From: Candidatus Latescibacterota bacterium
Lineage (GTDB): Bacteria; Latescibacterota; UBA2968; GCA-2709665
Direction: 5' to 3'
Assembly: GCA_965203805.1 (NCBI GenBank)
Contig: OZ241917.1
Coordinates: forward strand, 1,216,001 to 1,280,000
Length of the DNA: 64,000 nt
Shown: in pieces, positions 489 to 14,488 of the stretch
Layout of the letters: each line of letters begins with the position of its first letter
Numbering within the stretch: the stretch's first letter is position 1
Notes under the pieces: model-generated
What the model saw: only the letters and a program-made list of their open reading frames with translations
The model's database searches: none
What the model was told of the DNA's origin: nothing
Made by a program: the position numbers and the translations under genes

Positions 489-581
<93 letters not shown>

Positions 582-915
582 ACAAAAGCGGCTCGAGACC
601 CGGTCAATCAAGCGAAAACGCGTGTATCAACGTCCCGCCCTTTGAATTTGCCATTGCACGATATTCCAGGCGGTTCTTCACGGCCGGGGCACACCGTTCT
701 CTACAAATATTAAGATACAATAATCCACCGATATCCGCAACATTTTCGGGATCAATCAGGATTGCCGGGTCCGGTATCGTGGGAGCCTCGGATTCTGATT
801 TCGTCGTCCTACCCTTCTTGATCCGTATCACAGTTTTCGCTAAATTGCGACCGCATACCATGGATGGAATGGATCATCTCTTTGCGGCCAAATACAAGAC
901 GAGGTTATTCGGAAA

Positions 916-1608
916 ATGAACGACACCATCTGTTGGGACGGACTTACGCAGGCTCGGTCCTGCGACGACAAAGAGGCCGTTGACCGGCACGCTCTGGCCG
1001 ATGCCGCCAGGGATGCCGAATGGACCCGCGTCTTCGAACTTCTCACCAAATACAGGAAATGGTGGCACCCTACCCGGCCTGGGAATTGGGTTAACACCAC
1101 ACGGCCTGACGGATCATCCTGGTATGCGCCTCTACATCAGGCCGCGTGGCACGGCGCGGCGGTCACAGTCGCCGAACGGTTGATCGGTCTGGGCGCGTGG
1201 CGGACGCTCAGGAATGCCCGGGGAGCGCGGCCGTTGGACATTGCCAGACGCAGAGGGAACCGCCACCTGCTACACGTGCTGGCGCCCGAATACAAGCACG
1301 ACATCCCTCACGAGGACCTGTCTGGAATTCAAGCGCACTTCCATGCCGTCATTCGCGGCCGCGCCGATCACCTGGTGGATGAACAGAGACTGCGGTTGCC
1401 GCAATTGGAGCCGTTGCTGGAACTGGATCAACCGGAGATGTGGTTTGCCGTACCGGGTATGGCGGGTGGATTCCACTATCGGCTTCGTTCTGAGTGTGAT
1501 GAGATTCAGCTCGTTTCCGATAGTTGGTGCCGCGTCGTGGGAGGTTCGGGACAGAGACACGAGATCACGTCGCGCGGAAGCCGCCTCGTCGACGAGGGGT
1601 TCGTTTAA
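916..1608 (+). CDS. Ankyrin-repeat protein with unassigned C-terminal domain
   Basis: APLHQAAWHG and ARPLDIA ankyrin motifs; C-terminal WFAVPGMAGGF...SWCRVVGGSGQRHEIT block. Confidence 0.75.
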   Translation: MNDTICWDGLTQARSCDDKEAVDRHALADAARDAEWTRVFELLTKYRKWWHPTRPGNWVNTTRPDGSSWYAPLHQAAWHGAAVTVAERLIGLGAWRTLRNARGARPLDIARRRGNRHLLHVLAPEYKHDIPHEDLSGIQAHFHAVIRGRADHLVDEQRLRLPQLEPLLELDQPEMWFAVPGMAGGFHYRLRSECDEIQLVSDSWCRVVGGSGQRHEITSRGSRLVDEGFV

Positions 1609-1769
1609 CTCGCTGCGTAATGACCGTTGTTCCGTGCGAGCCAAATTCCGACGAATCATTTCACAGCTTTGTTTTTTCCGCGGGAGGCTATCGCGAGTTC
1701 TCGGTGTATGGATTTCGATTCACGAGGTTAGACCGACAAGCAATAGGCGCCACCGAGCACGTCACAGAC

Positions 1770-2663
1770 TCAGATGGTGTCGAAATAAGAGTCTTTGACC
1801 TTGACTTCCTTGACCATCCGTTCTGTAACGTCGACACCGACTCTGTACTTGGCGATGAGTTCGCACAATTCGTCGCCGTCTATCAAGTCGATCGGTGGTG
1901 CGCCGTCCCGGGTCGCTTCCTTTCGCGCTGCGGGTGTAAATGTCCCCGTGGTAATAATCAACCCCTTGTCGCCCCGGCCCACCATCGCGCCACGAAAATC
2001 ACGCACGGCACTAGCGCCAACACCGCCGGCATATCTCTTGCACTGGAAATAGATAGGAAAGCTGACGAGTGACATTCTGTAGAGTCCAACGCCATCCAGT
2101 CCACCGTCCCCGGAACGTCCGACAACTTCAACCTTCTGAAAACCTGCCTCTCTTAGAAGCAGCTTCGCGAGACGCTCAAACCCATCCGGTTTCATCTTCT
2201 TGAGAATCGCGATGAGTGCGGATTTCCAATCGTCTTCTGGAATGGGTTCGGCGTCGTCCTTGCTCGTAGATTTCTCCTTCGCCGCCCTCGTTTCTGCCGC
2301 CCTTCTGCCCGCCAACTTCCGCGCGCCGTCGTAAGCTTTTCGAAGTTCCGCGTCTGCTACATCTTCATCCATATCAAGGTATTTGTTACCTACCGCGGTC
2401 ATCGTGTAGGTCCCGCGCTCAGTACTATCAAATGCACCGATCGCCTTGAGCCAATAAATCGCCCACCCCAATCTGTGTAAAGCCTTCGATTGCCCCGTTG
2501 GTCCAGCGTAAACGACCTCGATTTGCTCATCAGTCAGACCTACTGCACTGACAACCTGGTCCATTATTTCTGTGCGTGCTGCCGAACCGCCAAGATCGTG
2601 CATCACTTTCAAAACCGGCGAGAGTAAATCGGCGATGCCGGGAAGTTCCACGTTATCTGACAT
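1770..2663 (-). CDS. mrr: Mrr-family (Type IV) restriction endonuclease
   Basis: Mrr N-terminal wHTH (LGGSA...RLGWAIYWLK) and catalytic FERL...GRSGDGGLDG...QCKRY...IDLIDG; RBS GAGGAGG before ATG 2663. Confidence 0.92.
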   Translation of the reverse strand: MSDNVELPGIADLLSPVLKVMHDLGGSAARTEIMDQVVSAVGLTDEQIEVVYAGPTGQSKALHRLGWAIYWLKAIGAFDSTERGTYTMTAVGNKYLDMDEDVADAELRKAYDGARKLAGRRAAETRAAKEKSTSKDDAEPIPEDDWKSALIAILKKMKPDGFERLAKLLLREAGFQKVEVVGRSGDGGLDGVGLYRMSLVSFPIYFQCKRYAGGVGASAVRDFRGAMVGRGDKGLIITTGTFTPAARKEATRDGAPPIDLIDGDELCELIAKYRVGVDVTERMVKEVKVKDSYFDTI

Positions 2664-2919
2664 GTGATGAAGCCCTCCTCTCAAATCATGTTTGGATCCC
2701 GGTCCGCTGTTTTCACTCGAATCTGATCCTGCATTGAAGCGACACCTCTATTGCACAAGGCCGGAATCAAGGTGGCAAACTGCACCTAGGCAGTGTCCGG
2801 GCCTTGCCGTTTTTCGGGCAATGGAGATAATCTGGCTTGGGCCTTGTATTCTGAATGTCCCACAGGTCGCGAGCAGTGCACCTGGGCACGAGCGCGTCTC
2901 GGCGTGACGCAATCCCGGA

Positions 2920-2982
2920 AGCCGAACGGAACAGGTGTGCCATCCCCGTCACGTCGTGGAGAGTGAGAAGTCACGTGATCAT
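2920..2982 (-). pseudogene. Possible AlpA-family regulator/excisionase remnant
   Basis: RBS GGAGG, then ATG 2982 reads MIT*LLTLHDVTGMAHLFRSA, resembling the AlpA N-terminus (RLLRLxEVxxxTGLSRS) with a stop at codon 4. Confidence 0.4.
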
Positions 2983-3473
2983 AGGTCCTCCCTTGCTACA
3001 CTAGAGTCCAGTCGCCAGGAGAGCCGCGCTTGTAGATCGTCGCCTCGCTGCGACAGTCGACCCGCGATCACGTAAATTTGTAAATAACTGTATAATAAGC
3101 ACGTATTTCCACTTCTGACTCACAGAAATCTGCTGCCAACTGGGACGCGGGAGGGACTAAATCGGCCTAACTCCTTGCCGCTGCGAAAGGAAGACGAGCG
3201 AGCAGCGGCGAATAAATCTACTCCCTTCTGCTGAGTGGACTCCGTCGTAACGTTCGAAATCCAGAAACAGGTCGAATCAGTCGACACTTAGCTACCGGCG
3301 ATTTCTCGCCGAGCAGATGAACGAACGGGTGGCTTACGTGAACGTGAAACCGTCGAATTGGGGCGGCCAATCGAGCCATAGGTTCAGGCGAAGCTTGGAG
3401 ACCATAGCGATTACTTAGAAGTGGCTTCTGCTTCGACATGGATCGTGCGTGACTGGCCTAGCAGCGTAGGTCC

Positions 3474-4298
3474 CTACAGGACTTCCACCTCTTGGACGGC
3501 TGCCGCTCCTCGTCTGAACCAACCTACGTCAGGTCCGACGGAAAGTAATCCATCGCTGCAAGTTATCGTCCCATCGTATCGGTCTCCGAGGGGGATGGAA
3601 CCGAGAGTCTTGATTATTGCTCTTTCACGAGTCAGGATGCGCTCGGGCTCAGCCGCGCGCTTGTCAACGTCCACCGCCCTGTCTTGTTCGAGATAGAACA
3701 GCCCAACACTGTCGAATACACCACTTCCATCGCCACGTTCCGAGCAACGAACTACCTCAATTCCGGACGGGGAAGTCGCAATGTGCGTGTAAGTGAAGGA
3801 TTCTGTTCCATTCTGCCACTGCACAAACAGCATTCCATTCTGGCGGAATGTAGTGACGTCTCCAAAAAACCGGTTGCTCCGGTTCGCAGCAGTGAGGTTC
3901 ACCGCCACTATGGTCTCGTCCGCGTCTGAGAGCCAGCCGAGCAGTTCCCTGAGAATCAGCGGATGAATGAACTCGTCTCGGACAAATGAGTAACGGCAGT
4001 TGCCGAACGACATATACGGTGACGCCCGGACGACGGCCGCCGTTGCCTCTCCATTCACCGTCTTGTACCACCTGTCTCGGTGCTCTCGAATCATCTTCTG
4101 CTTCGTGGGGTCTCCGCCGTAGGCCCGATGGCAACCGGCACAGAGTGGAGCCGCGTTGTCTTCTGTACTCGCACCGCCATCGGCACCGGGGACGATGTGA
4201 TGGATGTCAATGTCCGGCTTGTGGCAACCGGCGATGCAACAGCGCAAGTCGGCGCGGTCTCGAATCTTCTTCTTTAGTGCTTCTGGGAATCGCGGCAT
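3474..4298 (-). CDS. HNH endonuclease fused to an unknown C-terminal domain
   Basis: N-terminal C..C...HHIVP...GG....N...LCAGCH zinc-HNH motif; about 190 aa unassigned C-terminus. Confidence 0.85.
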   Translation of the reverse strand: MPRFPEALKKKIRDRADLRCCIAGCHKPDIDIHHIVPGADGGASTEDNAAPLCAGCHRAYGGDPTKQKMIREHRDRWYKTVNGEATAAVVRASPYMSFGNCRYSFVRDEFIHPLILRELLGWLSDADETIVAVNLTAANRSNRFFGDVTTFRQNGMLFVQWQNGTESFTYTHIATSPSGIEVVRCSERGDGSGVFDSVGLFYLEQDRAVDVDKRAAEPERILTRERAIIKTLGSIPLGDRYDGTITCSDGLLSVGPDVGWFRRGAAAVQEVEVL

Positions 4299-4879
4299 TT
4301 CCTGATACCTCTCGGTGACTGGCAGTCGTGTGCGACATCACCAATATATGACAGAGCGCATCGAACCATACGATGGCGGGCACCTCGTACATCCGAATCG
4401 CAGGGATCCGCGCTTCAGCCTCAACAGCCACCCGTCAGCAGCACCTCAAAATCTGCCACGGTCGGCATCGTCAAGACGATGCAGGGGCATGACGATTAGA
4501 AGGGTACACCCGGAACTGAGGCTTGGTCGGTGAGTACACTGGCGCTTCCTGTGCGTGGCAGAGTCTTCTGGCGTTGGTTACCTAGCCTACACTAACCGGT
4601 AGTGGCGTCCCATGAGGGCCTTAACTTCATCGTCGATTTTCTCGATTGAGAAGAGAGCGGAGCTTGAGTGAGATGACTGAGTTCTTGCTGTATGGAATCC
4701 ACGGCGAGAGGTAAAATCGTCTCAGTTTGAGGTCTGCGGCTTCTCGGCGCAGACGGCCACACTGCGATAGGCTGCGCAGTGACAGATACGTAACCCCTGA
4801 GACCGACTCGTGCTTTGATAAGAGTAGTAGTCGGTCAGAGGTTTCCACGTCTGGTATGTGCTACAGAATTTCGCGTCTA

Positions 4880-4910
4880 AACGGGATGGCCGTATCACGG
4901 CCATCCCGTT
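4880..4910. repeat. Perfect 14-bp inverted repeat
   Basis: AACGGGATGGCCGT-ATC-ACGGCCATCCCGTT. Confidence 0.85.
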
Positions 4911-5110
4911 GTTCCTCGCTGCGAGTTACTGACACCTGTACTGCTCGCGCGGATCCGTATCAAGTTGTCCGGAGCGTATGCCGCTCCAATTGATTACAGC
5001 GCGGCAAATCACCGGTACCTTCGTTTGCTCATTCGGTGCCGAGCGTGTTCCTTTTGACTATGCCGGTTCCGCTCCTCTTAGCGTGGATGTTTCGGTGGGC
5101 GGACTTTGGT

Positions 5111-8100
5111 TTACTCCAAATTCTCCGTTGACAATTCTGCCTGTCGCAAGACGAGCTGCGTCGCGTCTTCGGCCAGATCCGGAGGGTAGCCGTACTTTGC
5201 GAGCAGCCGGCGAACATTGCGCCGCAGACTCGCCCGTACGGACTCGCGTTGGGTCCAGTCAAGCTTGGGCATGCTCTTAACCATTTCGGTCAGTTTGCGA
5301 GCCATGAGGCGTAGCGTATCGCTCTGCATCGCTTCTCTGGCTGACTCGTTCTCCGCCAGGGCGTCGTAAAAGGCAGTTTCCTCGCTGCTCAGACCCAGTT
5401 CTTCACCGTGGCGTTGCGCGTCCCTTAGACTCTTCGCCAAGTCAATCAGCCGCGAGATCATCTCGGCGGTGGTGATCGCCCTGTTCGTATAGCGCAACAT
5501 CGCGTTTTCCAGGGCGTCGCGAAACTTTCGGCTCCGGACAATGTTCGTGCGCTCGGTGATACGAATCTGATCATTGAGCAGCTTGCGCAGCGTCTCCAAA
5601 GCCAAGCTCTTCTGCTCCAGTGCCGCCACCCGACCAAGGAACTCATCGCTAAGGATGCCGAGGCGGGCTTCCGACAGCCCCGCGACGGCGAACAGGTCGA
5701 TTACTTCGTCGGCATCGATCGCGCCGCCGATCACCTGGCGCACGGCGGCGTCGACGTCGCGTTTCCGAGCTTGACCGTCGCCATCGTCGGTATCGTCAAT
5801 CAGTCGTTTTCGAATCATCGCCACCACACGCTGGTAGAACGCGAGGTGTGCCGTGATGGCCTCGGTCTCCGGGCGCGGAACCGCCAACGCGAAGGCCGCC
5901 GACAGCTCCTTGACCAGTTTCCGCAGGCGCTTCCAGCCGTCGTTCTGCCCAAAGACGTGATCAATCGTGCGTAGATACACCCCAAGCACGGCTTTCGGTT
6001 TGGTGTCGAGCGCATGCTCGTAGTCGCAACCGTGGAAGAAGTCGCGCAGTTTCTCGAAGGCTGCCTGCATGGCAGGCACAGCCTCGTTTTGCACCCTCCT
6101 GACCGCCTCGCCCGTGCCGCCGGCATGGGTGTACGTCGCAAGCGCATCTGCCAACTGGTCGGCCAGACCCAGAAGGTCCACGATTAATCCACCGGGCTTG
6201 TCTCCGTGAACGCGATTCACGCGTGCGATAGCCTGCATCAGGTTGTGCCCGGCCAGCGGCTTATCCAGATACATGGTGTGTGCCGGCGGACAGTCGAAGC
6301 CGGTGAGCCACATGTCGCAGACGATCACCAAGCGTAGATTGTCGTGGGGGGCCTTGAAGCGCTCCGCCAGACGCTTGCGGGCGGTCTTGGTGCGCGCATG
6401 GCTCCTGAGCGGCTCGGGATCTTCTTGGCTGCCGGTCACGACCACCTTCATCGCCCCCTTTGCGTCGTCGACGTCGTGCCAGTCCGGGCGAAGTGTGCGG
6501 ATGGCCTCGTAGAGCCGCGCGGCAATGTCGCGGCTCATGGTCACGACCATCGCCTTGCCTTCCATAGCGGCGCGGCGCTTCTCCCAGTGTTCGACGATGA
6601 ACGCCGCAAGGCGTTCGATGCGCTCCTGGGCACCGACCAGGGACTCCAGTGGTACTCGGATGCTGTCATCCGCCCCTTCTCCACCGCGGTCGAGGTTGGC
6701 AACGTACTCAACATGCTCCTCGGCGACGCCCGCGCGCTCCTCGTCCACCTTCAGTTTAATGACGCGCGATTCGTAGTAGAGCGGCTGCGTGGCGCCATCC
6801 TCGACGGACTGGCGGATGTCGTAGACGTCCGCGTACTCGCCGAAGACGTGGGTCGTGTTTCTGTCGTCCCGTTCTAGCGGCGTGCCGGTGAAGCCGACGA
6901 ACGTGGCGTTCGGGAGCGCCTCCCGCATCCAGCGCGCGCCGCCCTCGACGAAGCCATACTGGCTGCGGTGGGCCTCGTCGGCCATAACGACCACGTTCGA
7001 ACGCTCCGAGACCACGCCGTGTGCCTCAGCAAACTTCTGAATCGTCGTGAACACCACCCCACCTGCCGCGTGGTCGAGCAAGGCCTTGAGATGCTCCCGG
7101 CTCACGGCCTGGACCGGATCCTGACGAAGCAGCGCGCGCCCGGCAGCGAAGGTCTCGAAGAGCTGATCGTCCAGATCGTTGCGGTCGGTGATCATGACGA
7201 TCGTCGGGTTGGTCATGCGCGACTCTCGGATCAGCCCCCCGGCCAACATCAACATAGTCAGCGACTTGCCCGAGCCCTGGGTATGCCAGATCACACCCCC
7301 GCGACCATCGCCCGTGCCGGACGGCGGCTTGAGACGCGCAAGCACGCTGGCGCGCGCATTGCGCACCGCGCGGAACTGGTGGTAGCCTGCGATGTTCTTG
7401 GCGATCTCGCCACGTTCGTCCTCCTCGAAAGTGACACAGGTTCGCAGGTAGTCGACCAACGTCCGCGGATGGAACAGGCCCCGGATCAGCGCCTCCAGGG
7501 TCGGCGCGCCTCCATCCTCACCACCGTCGATCCGGCGCCACGGCATGAAGCGGCCACGCCCGCTGGTGATCGAGCCGACGCGGTTCAGCATGCCGTCCGA
7601 GACCACCAGCACCAAGTTCGGCACGAACAGTTCGGGGGCGGTCTGCATGTAACGATCGAGTTGGTCGATGGCCGCACCTAGATTTGCGTGGGTGTGGGTC
7701 GGGTGTTTCAGCTCAATCACCGCGATCGGCAGCCCGTTCAGGAATACTGTCAGGTCCGGGCGGACGATCTTACCCGATGGCCCCGCAACACTGAGCTGGC
7801 GGACCACCAGAAGCTCGTTCGCGGCCGAGTTGTCGAAGTCGACCAGCCGTGCCCGCCGTCCACGGATTTCGCCACTCTTCGCGTCGCGGCACTCGATCTC
7901 GACGCCGTCGGTGAGCATTGCGTGGAACCAGCGGTTATTCTGGATTAGTGTCGGATGCGGCGGGCGCGAGAGGATGCGTACGACCCCCTCGATGGTGTCG
8001 TGCGGCAGATCGGGGTTGAGGCGATGCAGCGCGGATGCGAGGCGGCCCGTCAACATGGCCTGGGACGTATCGCCGCGCTCGCCAGCGTCGTCGATCTCGG

Positions 8101-8185
8101 CGTTGCATTTCACAGCCACGCCGGTCTCTCCGAAGTACAGAGGTGTCAGGTCTTCGACGAACTGTTCGTTGAGTCGTGCCATCAT
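5111..8185 (-). CDS. hsdR: Type I restriction endonuclease subunit R
   Basis: PD...IELK nuclease motif, HTQGSGKS Walker [30 protein letters not shown]. Confidence 0.97.
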
Positions 8186-9303
8186 ACGCCCTCCCCAACC
8201 CGATCTAGTAGACTTTCGAAGCGTACAAGCCGGTCTTCATGGGGTCCCGATGGCGAAGTCTTGGTAGTCGAATCAGCTACGCACTCCATGTGCCATTCAT
8301 TATCCTTCTTGAATCTGAATCCCCACACGCTGGTCCGATGCCCAGATTCGCTGTCGGCGGCATATAAGAACGGACTGAGGTCCAAAGTCAGTTCGCCCAT
8401 ACGAGCGAACACCCTGTCCATTTCGTCGACCGATATTGCAGACATCACAAGCACCGCTGCGTCGGTGTCAAGGGCGAGTTCACTAATGCGGCGACTCTGT
8501 GCGTGGCCATTCAATAGCTCGATATCTGCTTTGCCTCCAGCTTGAATGCTGTGGATGCGTATCAGGTCAATATTCTGCATATCGCGCAGGTCAAGCAATA
8601 TTTCGCGCAGCAAAGGATATGCTTCTTCGATGACCGCTTTCGCCTGTACCTCAGACAGTGCTGATGCATGGGAAAAGGCGTTGCGTACAACATTGAGCCG
8701 CCGAACTTCCCCGAGCACATCTACGGGAAGCAATGAGGCAACCTTCAGGTCGAGCCCCAACTCCTCTGCCCGATGCAGCACACCTTCGATGAGGCCGATA
8801 CGCACCGCCAGCTTGTCAGAGAGCAGATCTCGACGTCTGCACTCTCGCCGCCTCTGCCCCACTCCATCACGAAGAACTAGTGGTTTCATGCATGTCGCAA
8901 CTACCGCAGCTTCGGACAGTGCAAGCGCCGCCAGAAGACGAATTAGAGATTCCCACGTGTCACGCAGGCGGTGCAATCGGGTAAGTGACGAGCGGGTTCC
9001 CTCTAGGAAGCTATGGAACGGCACCGCAATAGGTGCTGGAAACTGCTCACACACAGCCTGCTCTAAATCCGTGCGAATCATCGCTGAACAATCGTCACGA
9101 CCGCGCCGGGCGGCGTCAGGGGCCATTGTCTCCAACACGTCGGCAGGATGAAACTGCTCTTGCCCGATTTCGATCATTCGATACGAGGATTCACACCAAA
9201 CACGATAATCTTCATCGTCTCTTCTTTTTCGCCGCTCGGTAAGGCGCTGATCGGGATCAAGGCGTTCTGCTTCCAATTGATCGCGGGAGGGCGAGTCTGT
9301 CAC
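8182..9303 (-). CDS. Uncharacterised protein with HEPN-like RxxxxH motif inside the hsd operon
   Basis: GTG 9303 overlaps the hsdS stop (GTGA); its stop overlaps the hsdR ATG (ATGA); motif RNAFSH at 8668-8685. Confidence 0.75.
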
Positions 9304-10610
9304 GAACGCACCCTCACAGTTCCCGATAGAAGCTTTGGAAGGAGGTAATCGCGTACCTGCGTCAAGTGCAGATTTTCCTCCACGCAAGCCGCGAGTAGTT
9401 CAAAAAGAGGATCAGACGTTTGCTGATAGGCGGAGATCACGTCGTCTATTGGCAGAACCACCGGGAGGGGGCGGAAGTTCTTCTTGCTGATCTCGGGGAA
9501 GGTTGTTCCGCTCGCGCGGGCCTTGATTACGTCCATCGAGGTCAACGCCCAGTTAAGAACGTAGATGGGCGGCAGCGGGCCGTCACACACCATCGCGATG
9601 AATCCCTGGTTGATCGCGGTAGGCACCCTAGCGATTCCCAGGTAGCCGACTGGAGCACGCGATGACATCAGCACCGTACCAACGGGTAGCATGCCGGAGC
9701 TAATCGAGTTGAGCGCCGCATCCGTGATGCGGCGCTCCGTGTCCAGCAACACCGGATGCGAGAGCCTCGACATGTCCTTCGGGGTCACCCAACAGTGCTC
9801 GCCGCCGTCCCAGTATTCAGGATTCTTCGTGTTCGGGGTGCCACCACCCTTCGTTGTGACCACATCGCCGATCGCTTTCACCTCCCACCCCTCCGGCACG
9901 GGGCCGATGTCGGAATCCACAAAGCGGGTGGGCAGTGCGTCGAAAACTTGCTGGGGCATGGAAGGGAAGGAGGTCGCGCCGGCGGCCTTGGCCTTCACTG
10001 GCTCGAAGTCTACGAACCACGCCCGGAATATCGCACGCGCCAGCCGCTCCAGCGCCCGCGCCGTCTGCTGGTTCTGCTCGATCTTGTCGTCGAGCGCGCC
10101 GAGGACACCAGCGATGTCCCGCTGTTCGGTGATTGCCGGGAGCGTTGTCTCGAACTCGCAAATCCGCCCAGGTGATGTATGGCGAACTGTGGATCCTGAA
10201 GCGGTCGCCAAAATGTGGTGTCTGTAGTCGCTGGCGCGAAGGCGATAGAACAGGAAGCGCTTGTCCGCCTCAACTCCCTCCTTGATTTCAACCAATCCAA
10301 TTCTCTGGTTATGCAAGTAGCGTCTTCCGAGCGTCCGCGGAACGAGGGCTGGATAGCCGAGCGTATCGCCAGCCTTGCTTAGATCCGTCATCGTGACTAC
10401 TAGATCGCCCTCTTGCAGGATGTAGTCATCCGGTACAGGTCCCGCGTAATACTTCGGCTTGTTGTTTAGGAAGCCTCCGCCAATGGCAAAATTGCCAGGT
10501 GTCACGAGCACGTATGGTGTCTCAGATTCAGTGAAGTACTCACCCTTGAATGCACAACCGTGTTTCACACGTATGTAAATTCCAAGTGTACGCGGGGCAG
10601 CGTCATCCAT
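9300..10610 (-). CDS. hsdS: Type I R-M specificity subunit
   Basis: Two TRDs, [22 protein letters not shown] spacer, [20 protein letters not shown] terminus; ATG overlaps hsdM end. Confidence 0.96.
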
Positions 10611-12288
10611 CGGCTTTGACTCCCCCAAGTCGTTCCCGCACCACCGCCATCAGCCGCTCCCCCTCGCCAAAGCACTCCACTAGCTCAGCCAGCAGACGCG
10701 GGTACATGTCTGCGAACGGCTCGCCATCGTCCTCGACTTCCTCCGCGCCGACGTAGCGGCCGGGGGTAAGCACGAAGCCGTGCTTACCAATGCGCGCGAT
10801 CGTCTCGGCCTTACAGAAACCGGCGATGTCGCGGTAGGCCCATTTGCCGTGCTGCGCTTCATTCCACCAGTCGGGCGGGGGCTCGCCCCGCCACTGGCGG
10901 AAGGCGTAGACGATGCGGCCGAGGTCGGAATCGAAGTTCGAGTCGCCCGTGCCGTCGGCCATCATGCTTTCGCCATCGTCGCCGCCGGTGAGCACGCGAA
11001 GCGTGCGGGTCCGCATCGTGCCGAGCTTGCGGGCGTCGATGAAGAGCGTCTCGCCCTTGCGGTCACGTCCACCGTGCTTGAGGTTCCTGCCGGTCTTGTC
11101 ACGGGTGAGGAACCAGAGGCAGGCGGGGATGCCGGTGGTCAGGAAGAGTTGAGCAGGCAACGCGACGATGCAGTCCACCAGATCGGCCTCGACAATGCGC
11201 TGGCGGATTTCGCCCTCGCCGCCGGAGCCGGTGGAGAGCGAGCCGTTGGCCATGACGAAGCCGGCGACTCCGCCTCCGTGGCCGTTAGGCGGCGCCATGT
11301 GGTGGATGAAGTGCTGAATCCAGGCGTAGTTGGCATTGCCGACGGGTGGTGTGCCGTGACGCCAGCGCACGTCGTCCGCCAGCAGCTTGCCCGACCAGTC
11401 CGAGATGTTGAACGGCGGATTGGCGAGGATGTAATCGGCCTTGAGGTCGGGGTGCAGGTCGCGCAGGAAGCTGTCGGCGGGCTGAGAGCCAAGGTTGGCC
11501 TCGATGCCGCGGATAGCCAGGTTCATGTGAGCCAGCCGCCAAGTCGTTGGATTAGACTCCTGGCCGAAGATCGAGATATCGGTCTTCTGTCCGCCGTGCG
11601 CCTCCACGAAGCGTTCGGACTGCACGAACATGCCCGCCGAGCCGCAGCAGGGGTCGTAGACGCGGCCCTCATACGGCTCGAGCATCTCGACCAGCAGCCG
11701 CACGACACAACGTGGCGTGAAGAACTCGCCGCCGAGCTTGCCCTCGGCCTGGGCAAACTTGCCGAGGAAGTACTCGTAAACCCGGCCGAGCGTGTCGCGG
11801 GCTTTAGCGCGGTCGCCCTTGAAGCCAATGTCGGCGATCAGGTCGATCAACCCCTTCATTTTTTCCGGCGCGATGCCGCGACGGGCGTAATCGCGGGGCA
11901 GCTTGCCCTTGAGGTTCGGGTTGTCGCGCTCGACGGCGAGGATGGCGTCGTCGATCAGCGTGGCGACATCCGGCCGCGCGGCCTGGTTCTGGAGCTTCTG
12001 CCAGCGTGCCTCGGGCGGCACCCAGAAGATCCGTTCGGCAGTGTATTCGTCGCGGCTCTCCAGCAGGCTTTCGATCTGAGGTCCGCTGATGCCGTCGGCT
12101 TCCAGTTCGCCCTCGAGATCGCGGCGCCGCACCTCAAAGGAGTCGGAAATGTACTTCAGGAAGAGCAGGCCGAGGACGACGTGTTTGTACTCGGCAGCGT
12201 CGATCTGACCGCGCAGGGCGTCGGCCGACTTCCAGAGGACTTCGGCGTAGGCCAATTCGGTGGTGGGTACAATGCCATTCTTCGTCAT
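10603..12288 (-). CDS. hsdM: Type I R-M N6-adenine methyltransferase
   Basis: [26 protein letters not shown] (motif I), NPPF (motif IV), LTPGRYVG. Confidence 0.97.
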
Positions 12289-12555
12289 GTCGTCGTGTAG
12301 ACACCTCCCCTATGGCTTTCGAGTACTGCCGTCGCCTTGAGCCAACAAATGGCCCATTCGACTCTGTGTAGAACTTTGGGCTTGCCGGACGGCACTGAGT
12401 ACACGACAGCGGTCTACTCGTCGGTGAGCCTAACCACCCCGCGACCGTGTTCCCCGAGACTAGGCCAGCCAACCGCTATCCCACCTTGAGACTTTCATAT
12501 GTAAACTGCACTTCCAAGCCGAAGAATACAAATAAGATATTTATTTACGATTATT

Positions 12556-14378
12556 GAGTCCCCTCCGAGAAGGGGGTTCAGGAAGATTTCGTGTGTAGGT
12601 GTCAGTGTTGTGTATTGAGAGGTCGCGTTGCGTGGTGAAAGTGCATCGGGTTGCGGCCCATCAACACAGAGGCGGTTTACGAGGTTGCTCGCGTGGTTTT
12701 GGGGCAAGGATATGCATAAAAAAGTCGCATCTTATGCGGGGAGCATCGTGGGTGAGGTGAGGTAATTCTGGATCCGAACGAGATTGACCCATAAGCCACG
12801 ACAGTGCGCCCACAGCTGATGTGGCATCAATCCACGATAGCGAGTTTTGCCGTTTCGGGTGTAATAGCTCAACTGGAAGAGGCTGGCTTCGACGTTATTG
12901 CGTCGGTTTCTGATGTGTTCAGGCAGGGCTTCACTCTGTTTGCGTTTGATGTAGTTGTCGATGGCCTGTTCTTTAAAGTATCGGGGTTTGCCATCCATGA
13001 TGAGTTTGTATTTCCCCGGTTTGTATTCTTGGGCAAGCTGCACGGCTTGGGTATTTCGATCCATGACTTCGACGCCTTCTCTTGTTCGTCGATAAATGAA
13101 ACGCCCTGGGGTTCCTTGCAGGCCACTGTAATAGAATTGCTTGTCGTGTTCGTTTGCGTACTCGGCGTTGGATTGATCATTATAGGCCCCATCCATCGAC
13201 ACGTCTCGAACCTGCCCTACCACGTGCTGTGTGCGCCCTACGGCCGCTTGCACAAACGCGTTGTCGGGCGCTGTCGCGGATTTGACGTCAATGTCCGTGA
13301 TCAAATTGAGGCCCTCCTCACCGCAGGTCTCGGTGAGGTTCACACTGTATCCTTTCACCTTCGCTTCCCCTTTCTTACGAAAGGCCGCATCTTCGTCATC
13401 GGGGGACTGCAAGGAGGATGCGGAGATCTCATCAGGCGGCTTGGGAAGCACCTGTTTGGAGGAGGATAAAACCGAATACTGGTCTCCAAAAACACGCGCC
13501 ATCACACCATAGTGATCGCTGTCTTTCTCGGTATAGATCGCTTGAAGCCTGCTCAATAACACACCGTATTCCTGTAGCTTCTCACCTTTTTCAGCACGGG
13601 TGAGACGGTAGACAACCTGATGGGGCTTCACCTTGAGCATTCCGTCCAGAACCTGCCGGTGTTTTCCTGATAATCGCCGCTTCCGGGCCTCGTCCAACGA
13701 TCCCCAGAACCGTTGTAAACAACCCACCACCAACTGCAACCGACAACATAGCGCAATGTTCGAGCCGATTAACTTACTGTCCATTCGGATTTGCTGACCC
13801 AGCACACCAAAGGCGTCGGCCTGCGTCTTCGTTAAGCTGCTAAAGGTCTCGCCAACCAGATCCCGACCGGTTTTCAGTTGATACGCATACAAGGACTGTT
13901 TGAACAGATAATACGTCGACTCCACAGGCGCCTCATCAGACAGATTCATCAACCCCAATGCCCGCATCGCCAGGATATTGAACCGACATTGCTCGAACAG
14001 TTGTGCATCGCTCCACCCGAAGCCCTCCTTCAAGACCATCATCGCCGCCAACTGACGAATCGGGGCATTGGGACGGCCTATGTCGGGATCAAACAACACG
14101 GAAAACACATCCTCGTCGATCTCTGACGTGATGTGCTGGTAAAACAGATTATGCCACGACTTCGGATCATTCAACTGCGCCTGCTTCCGCTGTGTGAAAT
14201 GCGACTCGAAATTCGAAAACAGATCCGGTTGACTGCACGACGCACTCGGCTTATACATCTGTCCTCTCCCACGCTCTCTACAATTGTAATTCTCAATACT
14301 TCATCCTTGCTGACTTTTCACACTTCGAATTTAGTACTTTCACCAGCATAAGTAAATGCGACTTTTCGGAGTGGACTC
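12556..14378 (-). mobile_element. Complete IS element (IS1182/IS5-like), 1823 bp
   Basis: Terminal IRs GAGTCCCCTCCGAGAAG and GAGTCCACTCCGAAAAG (15/17); flanking direct repeat ATTATT at 12550-12555 and 14379-14384. Confidence 0.9.
12732..14258 (-). CDS. DDE transposase (IS1182/IS5-like)
   Basis: DUF772-like N-terminus (GRPNAP...SDAQL), RMDSK, MDGAY, RNNVEAS, KTRYRG. Confidence 0.9.
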   Translation of the reverse strand: MYKPSASCSQPDLFSNFESHFTQRKQAQLNDPKSWHNLFYQHITSEIDEDVFSVLFDPDIGRPNAPIRQLAAMMVLKEGFGWSDAQLFEQCRFNILAMRALGLMNLSDEAPVESTYYLFKQSLYAYQLKTGRDLVGETFSSLTKTQADAFGVLGQQIRMDSKLIGSNIALCCRLQLVVGCLQRFWGSLDEARKRRLSGKHRQVLDGMLKVKPHQVVYRLTRAEKGEKLQEYGVLLSRLQAIYTEKDSDHYGVMARVFGDQYSVLSSSKQVLPKPPDEISASSLQSPDDEDAAFRKKGEAKVKGYSVNLTETCGEEGLNLITDIDVKSATAPDNAFVQAAVGRTQHVVGQVRDVSMDGAYNDQSNAEYANEHDKQFYYSGLQGTPGRFIYRRTREGVEVMDRNTQAVQLAQEYKPGKYKLIMDGKPRYFKEQAIDNYIKRKQSEALPEHIRNRRNNVEASLFQLSYYTRNGKTRYRGLMPHQLWAHCRGLWVNLVRIQNYLTSPTMLPA

Positions 14379-14397
14379 ATTATTTAAATCACATATG

Positions 14398-14488
<91 letters not shown>

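Follow-up and report, generated by a model that had tools for sequence, protein, structure and literature searches.

A putative HEPN protein family embedded between hsdS and hsdR of a mobile Type I restriction-modification lineage shares a short segment with Abi_C proteins of the same slot

The window analysed here, a stretch of 64,000 nucleotides (nt) from the genome of a Candidatus Latescibacterota bacterium (contig OZ241917.1, positions 1,216,001 to 1,280,000), carries a Type I restriction-modification (R-M) cassette in which an additional gene, here called X, lies between hsdS and hsdR. The cassette is encoded on the minus strand, as are all parts of X described below, and consists of hsdM (10603..12288; methyltransferase subunit of 561 amino acids (aa); Pfam N6_Mtase 3.8e-93 and HsdM_N 1.2e-23), hsdS (9300..10628; specificity subunit of 442 aa from a TTG start or 436 aa from an ATG at 10610; Pfam Methylase_S 3.3e-20, in two stretches), gene X (8182..9303; 373 aa, GTG start, TGA stop at 8182-8184) and hsdR (5111..8185; restriction/translocase subunit of 1024 aa; Pfam HSDR_N, SWI2_SNF2, T1R_D3-like and T1RH-like_C). 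The GTG start of X at 9303 overlaps the stop codon of hsdS in a GTGA, the ATG of hsdR at 8185 overlaps the stop codon of X in an ATGA and, as read from the sequence, Shine-Dalgarno-like stretches precede both starts (GAGGG for X, GGGGAGGG for hsdR). An alternative in-frame TTG at 9387 would give a product of 401 aa; the GTG is preferred because the relatives of X begin at the equivalent position and are mostly 373 aa long. A preliminary description of this DNA had reported a 373-aa open reading frame (ORF), joined by 4-nt overlaps to both neighbours in an hsdS-X-hsdR slot and free of a Walker A motif, and this was borne out by the ORF reading, by the Pfam names of hsdM, hsdS and hsdR and by a pattern search ([AG]xxxxGK[ST], 0 matches). 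In addition, no ATPase family was found in X with Pfam or NCBIfam.

X belongs to a conserved family of approximately 350-375 aa, the only named members of which are labelled 'hypothetical protein'. A word-indexed search returned 151 relatives at E<=1e-3 (among the 120 matches listed, mostly 370-378 aa long and 52-87% identical to X), and an exhaustive HMMER search of 1.84 billion representatives returned 175 at E<=1e-3, of which 118 reached E<=1e-10. In Pfam, NCBIfam and PADLOC, X had no match at E<=1 except for one chance-level Pfam row (0 families among the 5027 models of PADLOC-DB v2.0.0), and searches of PDB sequences with two family alignments, A1 and A2, gave chance-level matches only (E 0.18-7). 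The family is invisible to Pfam, NCBIfam and PADLOC and is therefore missed by genome annotation and by censuses of defence systems. The ratio of nonsynonymous to synonymous substitution rates (dN/dS) of X was 0.16-0.47 against five cassettes, compared with 0.11-0.17 for hsdR, the pair of X with locus L011 being saturated and its dS undefined; X is a real gene under purifying selection, somewhat looser than that on hsdR.

The 12 genome loci with X span at least 8 phylum-level groups, including Pseudomonadota, Chloroflexota, Acidobacteriota, Gemmatimonadota, Actinomycetes and Deinococcota, and their HsdR proteins are 74-89% identical to that of the window, from which it follows that the whole cassette moves horizontally. 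Full-length X was present in 1 of 168 genomes of the window's own phylum and, within the class of locus L006, in 1 of the 400 genomes sampled, which is that of L006 itself. Searches of 72,556 plasmid records and 50,697 phage records revealed no copy of X. All 12 loci read hsdM-hsdS-X-hsdR, with an [AG]TGA junction between hsdS and X in 9 of them and, wherever X is intact (10 loci), a TGATG or TAATG between X and hsdR. The linkage extends to a distant subfamily (alignment A7, members 25-29% identical to X), for which a metagenome scan gave 31 loci. Among those with a flank of 400 nt or more on the side concerned, hsdS is the immediate upstream neighbour in 22 of 25 and hsdR is found downstream in 17 of 20, and 29 of the 31 loci contain at least one hsd match. 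The preliminary description had proposed hsd linkage of the homologues as a check on its reading, and the linkage holds in both the genome and the metagenome loci. Two of the 12 genome loci have a truncated X beside a full-length hsdR, with 303 aa left in L007 (8001-8912) and 186 aa in L012 (8001-8561; residues ~169-317, including the RNxxxH motif described below, are deleted), and thus the R-M enzyme does not need X. Other defence genes may stand beside an X-like gene, as in the metagenome loci L085 (3120-5018), which reads hsdS-X-GmrSD-hsdR, and in L083 (2168-4932) and L087 (2454-5345), in which an hsdM fragment and X are followed by a GmrSD Type IV restriction gene and then by a DUF3644 HEPN gene; hence, the slot stacks several defence genes.

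The central part of X, residues ~88-245 (8569..9042), represents a putative HEPN domain, delimited by sub-threshold HEPN_Swt1 matches and by hhalign, that comprises an FPAPIA stretch, a helix with W117-E118, an RNAFSH motif and the helix following it. The HEPN fold is a four-helix up-down bundle of ~100-120 aa that tolerates inserts. The preliminary description had proposed a HEPN RNase from an RxxxxH signature in a stretch that corresponds to X residues 203-212, after a helical region that corresponds to residues 113-127. The pattern by itself does not carry this claim, as a bare R.{4,6}H occurs twice in X, at residues 104 and 207, which is not above chance, whereas its conservation exceeds chance and the motif R207-N208-A-F-S-H212 (8668..8685; defined by conservation in A2) behaves like that of a catalytic HEPN, with invariant R and H, an N after the R and an E upstream. 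In alignment A2 (87 relatives, 18-48% identity), R207 and H212 are the only invariant columns (87/87 each), and N208 is kept in 83, W117 in 83 and E118 in 86 of the 87 sequences. Among 150 cluster representatives listed, both R and H are present in 137 of the 140 that cover the motif, E118 is kept in 127 of 128 and N208 in 132 of the 139 with a residue at that position, so that conservation of the two residues among homologues, also proposed as a check, was found as anticipated. In active HEPN RNases, Rx4-6H was described as having N, D or H as a polar residue next to the R and as being preceded by an acidic residue, typically within Ex3[KR] (PMC3710099, section 6), and the Rx4-6H and the polar residue of the X family fit this description. 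The Ex3[KR] form is restricted to the close clade of X, where R122 is kept in at least 90% of alignment A1.

Profile comparisons point in the same direction. Ten of the 87 relatives match Pfam HEPN_Swt1 below threshold, always over the region of X residues ~88-245, which points towards the Swt1-like HEPN family; three match RiboL-PSP-HEPN and one each MAE_28990 and Apea HEPN, likewise below threshold. The best HEPN_Swt1 match, that of P0210, reached 26.1 bits (cut-off 27.5; E 1.1e-5) over profile positions 43-114 of 115. When the HEPN region of the X family was compared by hhalign with a 55-sequence Swt1 alignment built from bona fide PF18731 matches, 48 columns were aligned motif on motif with P=3.8e-4 and a probability of 36%, while six controls (HsdS, the HsdR C-terminal domain, Abi_C, the shared segment described below alone, a reversed query and a reversed template) gave P=0.06-0.2; an earlier, low-diversity version of the Swt1 alignment had given P=0.003-0.005. 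These results agree with the central domain of X being a divergent HEPN of the Swt1/Abi2 kind but do not prove it.

The remaining part, residues ~246-373 (8185..8568), forms a C-terminal domain of no known family that was delimited by family conservation (G266 in 84/87, P311 in 86/87) and travels with the X-type HEPN domain. In an ESM Atlas model of the homologue P0115 (predicted template modelling (TM) score, pTM, 0.82), residues ~75-366 align as a single unit with portions of larger multidomain proteins, at TM 0.54-0.65 and in Macro, Methylase_S, N6_Mtase, CHAT, HSP70 and NB-ARC clusters, which are leads only; none of these neighbours has a named family over the aligned part. With residues 100-250, RnlA-toxin and Csm6 HEPN feature in matches of 0.75-0.77, below the level that counts and likewise only leads. 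By sequence, the X-like HEPN-plus-C-terminal unit is also fused to Methylase_S (P0249) and to N-terminal regions of HsdR-type nuclease/helicases (P0257, P0263, P0268, P0270 and P0272). In the fusions, the X-like domain starts only at FPxPIA (X residue ~88) and lacks the shared segment. RNxxxH is retained in the long fusions other than P0188 (664 aa), in which an X-like N-terminal part is joined to a PNP_UDP_1 phosphorylase-type domain and TRIGLSD stands at the motif positions. P0188 lacks the H, and the scaffold can therefore persist without the RNase site; it may have been kept there as a sensor while the effector was replaced. Two further X-like units lie outside hsd operons, one at the N-terminus of a 1031-aa STAND (AAA_16) NTPase (L063, 7435-10530, minus strand) and one at the C-terminus of an 867-aa protein with a masked stretch (L062, 8833-11436, minus strand).

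The preliminary description had left both ends of X unassigned. While this still holds for the C-terminal domain, the N-terminal part could be partly assigned to a segment of ~55 aa that is common to X and to Abi_C proteins of the same slot. When the phylum was searched with the X family profile, four short matches covered only the N-terminal part (L058-L061). The matching proteins, of 230-272 aa, occupy the hsdS-hsdR slot of Type I cassettes with HsdR 46-88% identical to that of the window, and they are Abi_C proteins (PF14355; 41-48 bits, cut-off 24). A profile of X residues ~15-100 (87 relatives) matches the last ~55 residues of these proteins with 36-50 bits, and this match to the Abi_C tails defines the shared slot module, X residues ~28-80 (9064..9222, boundaries approximate). 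A database search with the segment only returned 90 proteins at E<=1e-3, 35 of Abi_C type and 55 of X type. All 35 Abi_C proteins (166-272 aa) carry the segment at the C-terminal end, and the other 55, without a Pfam family, comprise 44 known X relatives and 11 new proteins that all match the X profile (4 of them truncated). Three more Abi_C-plus-segment loci, from another class, were located between hsdS and hsdR, two of them decayed, and all 7 Abi_C-plus-segment loci examined sit in this slot. At L115 (G360:C6:199000-215000), the hsdM-hsdS-Abi_C-hsdR cassette appears decayed, with every gene in several tblastn pieces in different frames. By profile comparison, two effector families without detectable similarity of their catalytic domains keep the same segment at opposite ends of the protein. 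A reading of the segment as a signal at the DNA level, such as a ribosome-binding site or an internal promoter, was rejected because the segment adjoins hsdS in X genes but hsdR in Abi_C genes.

The phylogeny of HsdR adds to this picture. In a FastTree tree with midpoint rooting only, of 22 sequences of at least 900 aa (16 of the 38 loci with an HsdR match were left out as shorter than 900 aa), the Abi_C cassettes L059 and L061 are nested inside the X clade with support 1.0 and L060 is sister to that clade, while L058, also with Abi_C, is paired with support 1.0 with L048, whose true Swt1-HEPN protein lacks the segment. As Abi_C cassettes stand among X cassettes, related R-M backbones exchange HEPN effectors in the slot. 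The segment would tie the effector, physically or in its regulation, to the R-M complex. We tentatively raise the possibility, which we would not yet call probable, that the segment is a portable docking or latency domain and that one Type I lineage holds interchangeable HEPN RNases, X with the segment N-terminal and Abi_C with the segment C-terminal. If true, a conserved R-M backbone would change its effectors and retain the connecting piece, the segment would be the first defined interface that couples an R-M system to a back-up effector, and the PrrC model would be generalised to a plug-in architecture open to testing.

That R-M operons harbour embedded HEPN RNases has long been predicted. 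In EcoprrI, prrC occupies exactly the position between hsdS and hsdR. To our knowledge, PrrC is essentially the only R-M-embedded HEPN RNase with a worked-out mechanism. The PrrC/RloC anticodon nucleases are activated by an anti-restriction factor or dTTP. In the accepted model, as given in section 10 of PMC3710099, PrrC stays latent under the R-M complex and serves as a second line of defence. PrrC of EcoprrI, a Type Ic R-M system, and X are both embedded in an hsdMSR operon, and PrrC has a HEPN-type Rx4-6H nuclease domain like the putative one of X. However, the nuclease of PrrC is regulated by an N-terminal ABC ATPase, whereas X has neither a Walker A motif nor an ATPase match, and thus X is not a member of the PrrC family; there is no detectable sequence relation between the two, and X has the ~55-aa N-terminal segment and an extra C-terminal domain.

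The best profile relative of X, although sub-threshold, is the Swt1-like HEPN family (PF18731; Abi2/Swt1 clade, Anantharaman et al. 2013), which shares with X an RNxxxH-type motif followed by a helix and whose bacterial members were described as linked to R-M components (PMC3710099). X differs in that it falls below the PF18731 cut-off of 27.5 bits and has its HEPN domain in a central rather than terminal position, and the Swt1 proteins of the slot, unlike X, lack the shared segment. Of the 7 small-protein loci fetched, two (L046 and L048) have a true Swt1-HEPN protein (385-404 aa, HEPN C-terminal) between hsdS and hsdR, the gene lying just upstream of hsdR with ~3 kb more sequence between it and hsdS; at L047, only hsdS and hsdM fragments were found near such a protein (genomes G082, G088 and G101, respectively, of the same phylum as the window). 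PF18731 matches occurred in 49 of the 168 phylum genomes, the bulk being proteins of ~1110 aa. In the window's own genome, a 1111-aa protein with an N-terminal Swt1-like HEPN (L013, G000:C1:4565505-4565846) matches PF18731 with 126.7 bits.

Abi_C (PF14355, 'abortive infection family protein') is a HEPN family that shares with X the hsdS-hsdR slot, closely related R-M backbones and the ~55-aa segment. Their catalytic domains have no detectable similarity (hhalign P=0.13) and X has no Abi_C domain match; the segment is C-terminal in Abi_C and N-terminal in X, and the Abi_C slot proteins, of 166-272 aa, lack the C-terminal domain of X. A further comparison is offered by HEC-08/DUF3644, described by Payne et al. 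2024 (bioRxiv 10.1101/2024.01.29.577857) as a HEPN defence protein encoded by one gene and found within larger defence systems, in which protein mutation of the H in Rx4-6H abolished defence. HEC-08 belongs to a HEPN family different from that of X, is embedded in Hma systems and works alone.

At least 16 R-M-linked HEPN clades, together with the model by analogy with PrrC, were published in 2013 (PMC3710099, section 10), and embedded genes in Type I R-M systems have been surveyed since (bioRxiv 10.1101/2024.01.29.577857). X is therefore new only as a family, an unannotated one of an already known kind, namely HEPN genes inside R-M operons. As such, the preliminary description overstated the novelty of an R-M-guarding HEPN effector, while its reading of X as a back-up abortive-infection arm is supported in part, by the slot, the lack of an ATPase, the catalytic-type motif, the sub-threshold Swt1-like matches and the hsd linkage. 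We found no description of the X family, the shared segment or the swapping of effectors in the literature searched, although the supplementary tables of PMC3710099 and of the Payne preprint may list them. The X family is compact, lacks an ATPase and shows very tight linkage to hsd genes, and it offers a clear putative catalytic dyad (R207, H212) to mutate and, in the segment common to a second effector family of the slot, a short piece that can be deleted, swapped or pulled down. It could provide a testable handle on the coupling between a restriction complex and its back-up RNase.

X is best explained as a three-part accessory protein of one horizontally mobile Type I R-M cassette lineage. 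By analogy with PrrC, we lean towards the view that it is an ATPase-less HEPN RNase that serves this lineage as an accessory effector and is held latent via the segment. Residues ~88-245 would form a divergent HEPN of Swt1/Abi2 type with a predicted metal-independent RNase site composed of R207, N208 and H212, with E118 upstream, while residues ~246-373 may bind the substrate or sense a signal. As in EcoprrI, X would be co-produced with HsdS and HsdR via the overlapping start and stop codons, and the restriction complex would keep it latent. A phage that disables or overloads restriction might then release X, which would cut cellular or phage RNA, so that translation stops and the infection is aborted.

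Several observations weigh against this proposal, with regard to both the nature of the domain and its coupling to restriction. X itself has no Pfam HEPN match at E<=1, it was also missed when its own genome was scanned with PF18731 at E<=10, and every Pfam HEPN match of its relatives remains below the curated cut-off. The hhalign probability against Swt1 is only 36%, and a comparison of the X HEPN region with the Abi_C slot proteins by hhalign gave nothing. The absence of Pfam HEPN matches above threshold and of PDB sequence matches, the low hhalign probability and the lack of a named family over the aligned part of the ESM Atlas neighbours would also agree with a domain that is not a HEPN, its R and H belonging to another, undescribed helical enzyme or binding fold and the Swt1 matches being a coincidence at the level of the motif. 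We consider this very unlikely, given that the matches fall in every case on HEPN families (Swt1, RiboL-PSP, MAE_28990, Apea) and cover the motif region, that the hhalign controls were at least 100-fold weaker and that the context is typical of HEPN effectors. In addition, R122 is kept in only 6 of the 87 sequences of the wide alignment, so Ex3[KR] is not family-wide, and the fused relative P0188 has lost the H of the motif. The latter, which leaves the scaffold in place, may be set beside the tight translational coupling on both sides of X and the existence of HEPN domains that are non-catalytic binders (PMC3710099, abstract and section 6) as support for X being a non-toxic accessory or regulatory Type I subunit, involved in assembly, restriction alleviation or nucleic-acid binding, whose RNxxxH would serve binding and not RNA cleavage. 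Such a role seems just as improbable, as R, N and H are near-invariant at a divergence down to ~20% identity, as is typical of a catalytic site, a truncated X stands beside an intact hsdR in 2 of 12 cassettes, and sibling cassettes swap X for another HEPN family.

With regard to the coupling, the slot also hosts autonomous defence genes (GmrSD, DUF3644 HEPN) and, on a sister backbone, Swt1-HEPN proteins that lack the segment, and therefore embedding alone is no proof of coupling. X might instead be an autonomous abortive-infection or toxin-type HEPN RNase that hitch-hikes in the hsd operon with its own phage sensing, for instance via the C-terminal domain, and does not interact with the R-M enzyme. 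This would be in line with the slot as a hotspot of defence genes capable of standing alone, with the defence conferred by embedded genes cloned alone (Payne et al., 10.1101/2024.01.29.577857) and with the fusion of an X-like domain to a STAND NTPase outside the hsd context (L063), and embedding itself would already give co-transfer and co-expression. Nevertheless, the hsd linkage is almost exclusive across 43 loci, no copies of X occurred in the plasmid or phage records searched, the segment common to two HEPN families was found only in this slot, and X-like domains are fused to HsdS and HsdR-type proteins, which together make an autonomous X unlikely in our judgement, if less so than the two preceding possibilities.

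The cassette of the window is part of a small defence island (490-14488) that extends from a tRNA-Ser(gga) at 490-581 to a tRNA-Ser(cga) at 14398-14488 and also contains, all on the minus strand, genes for an Mrr-type restriction protein (1770-2684), an HNH endonuclease (3474-4298) and a DUF772 transposase (12732-14258).

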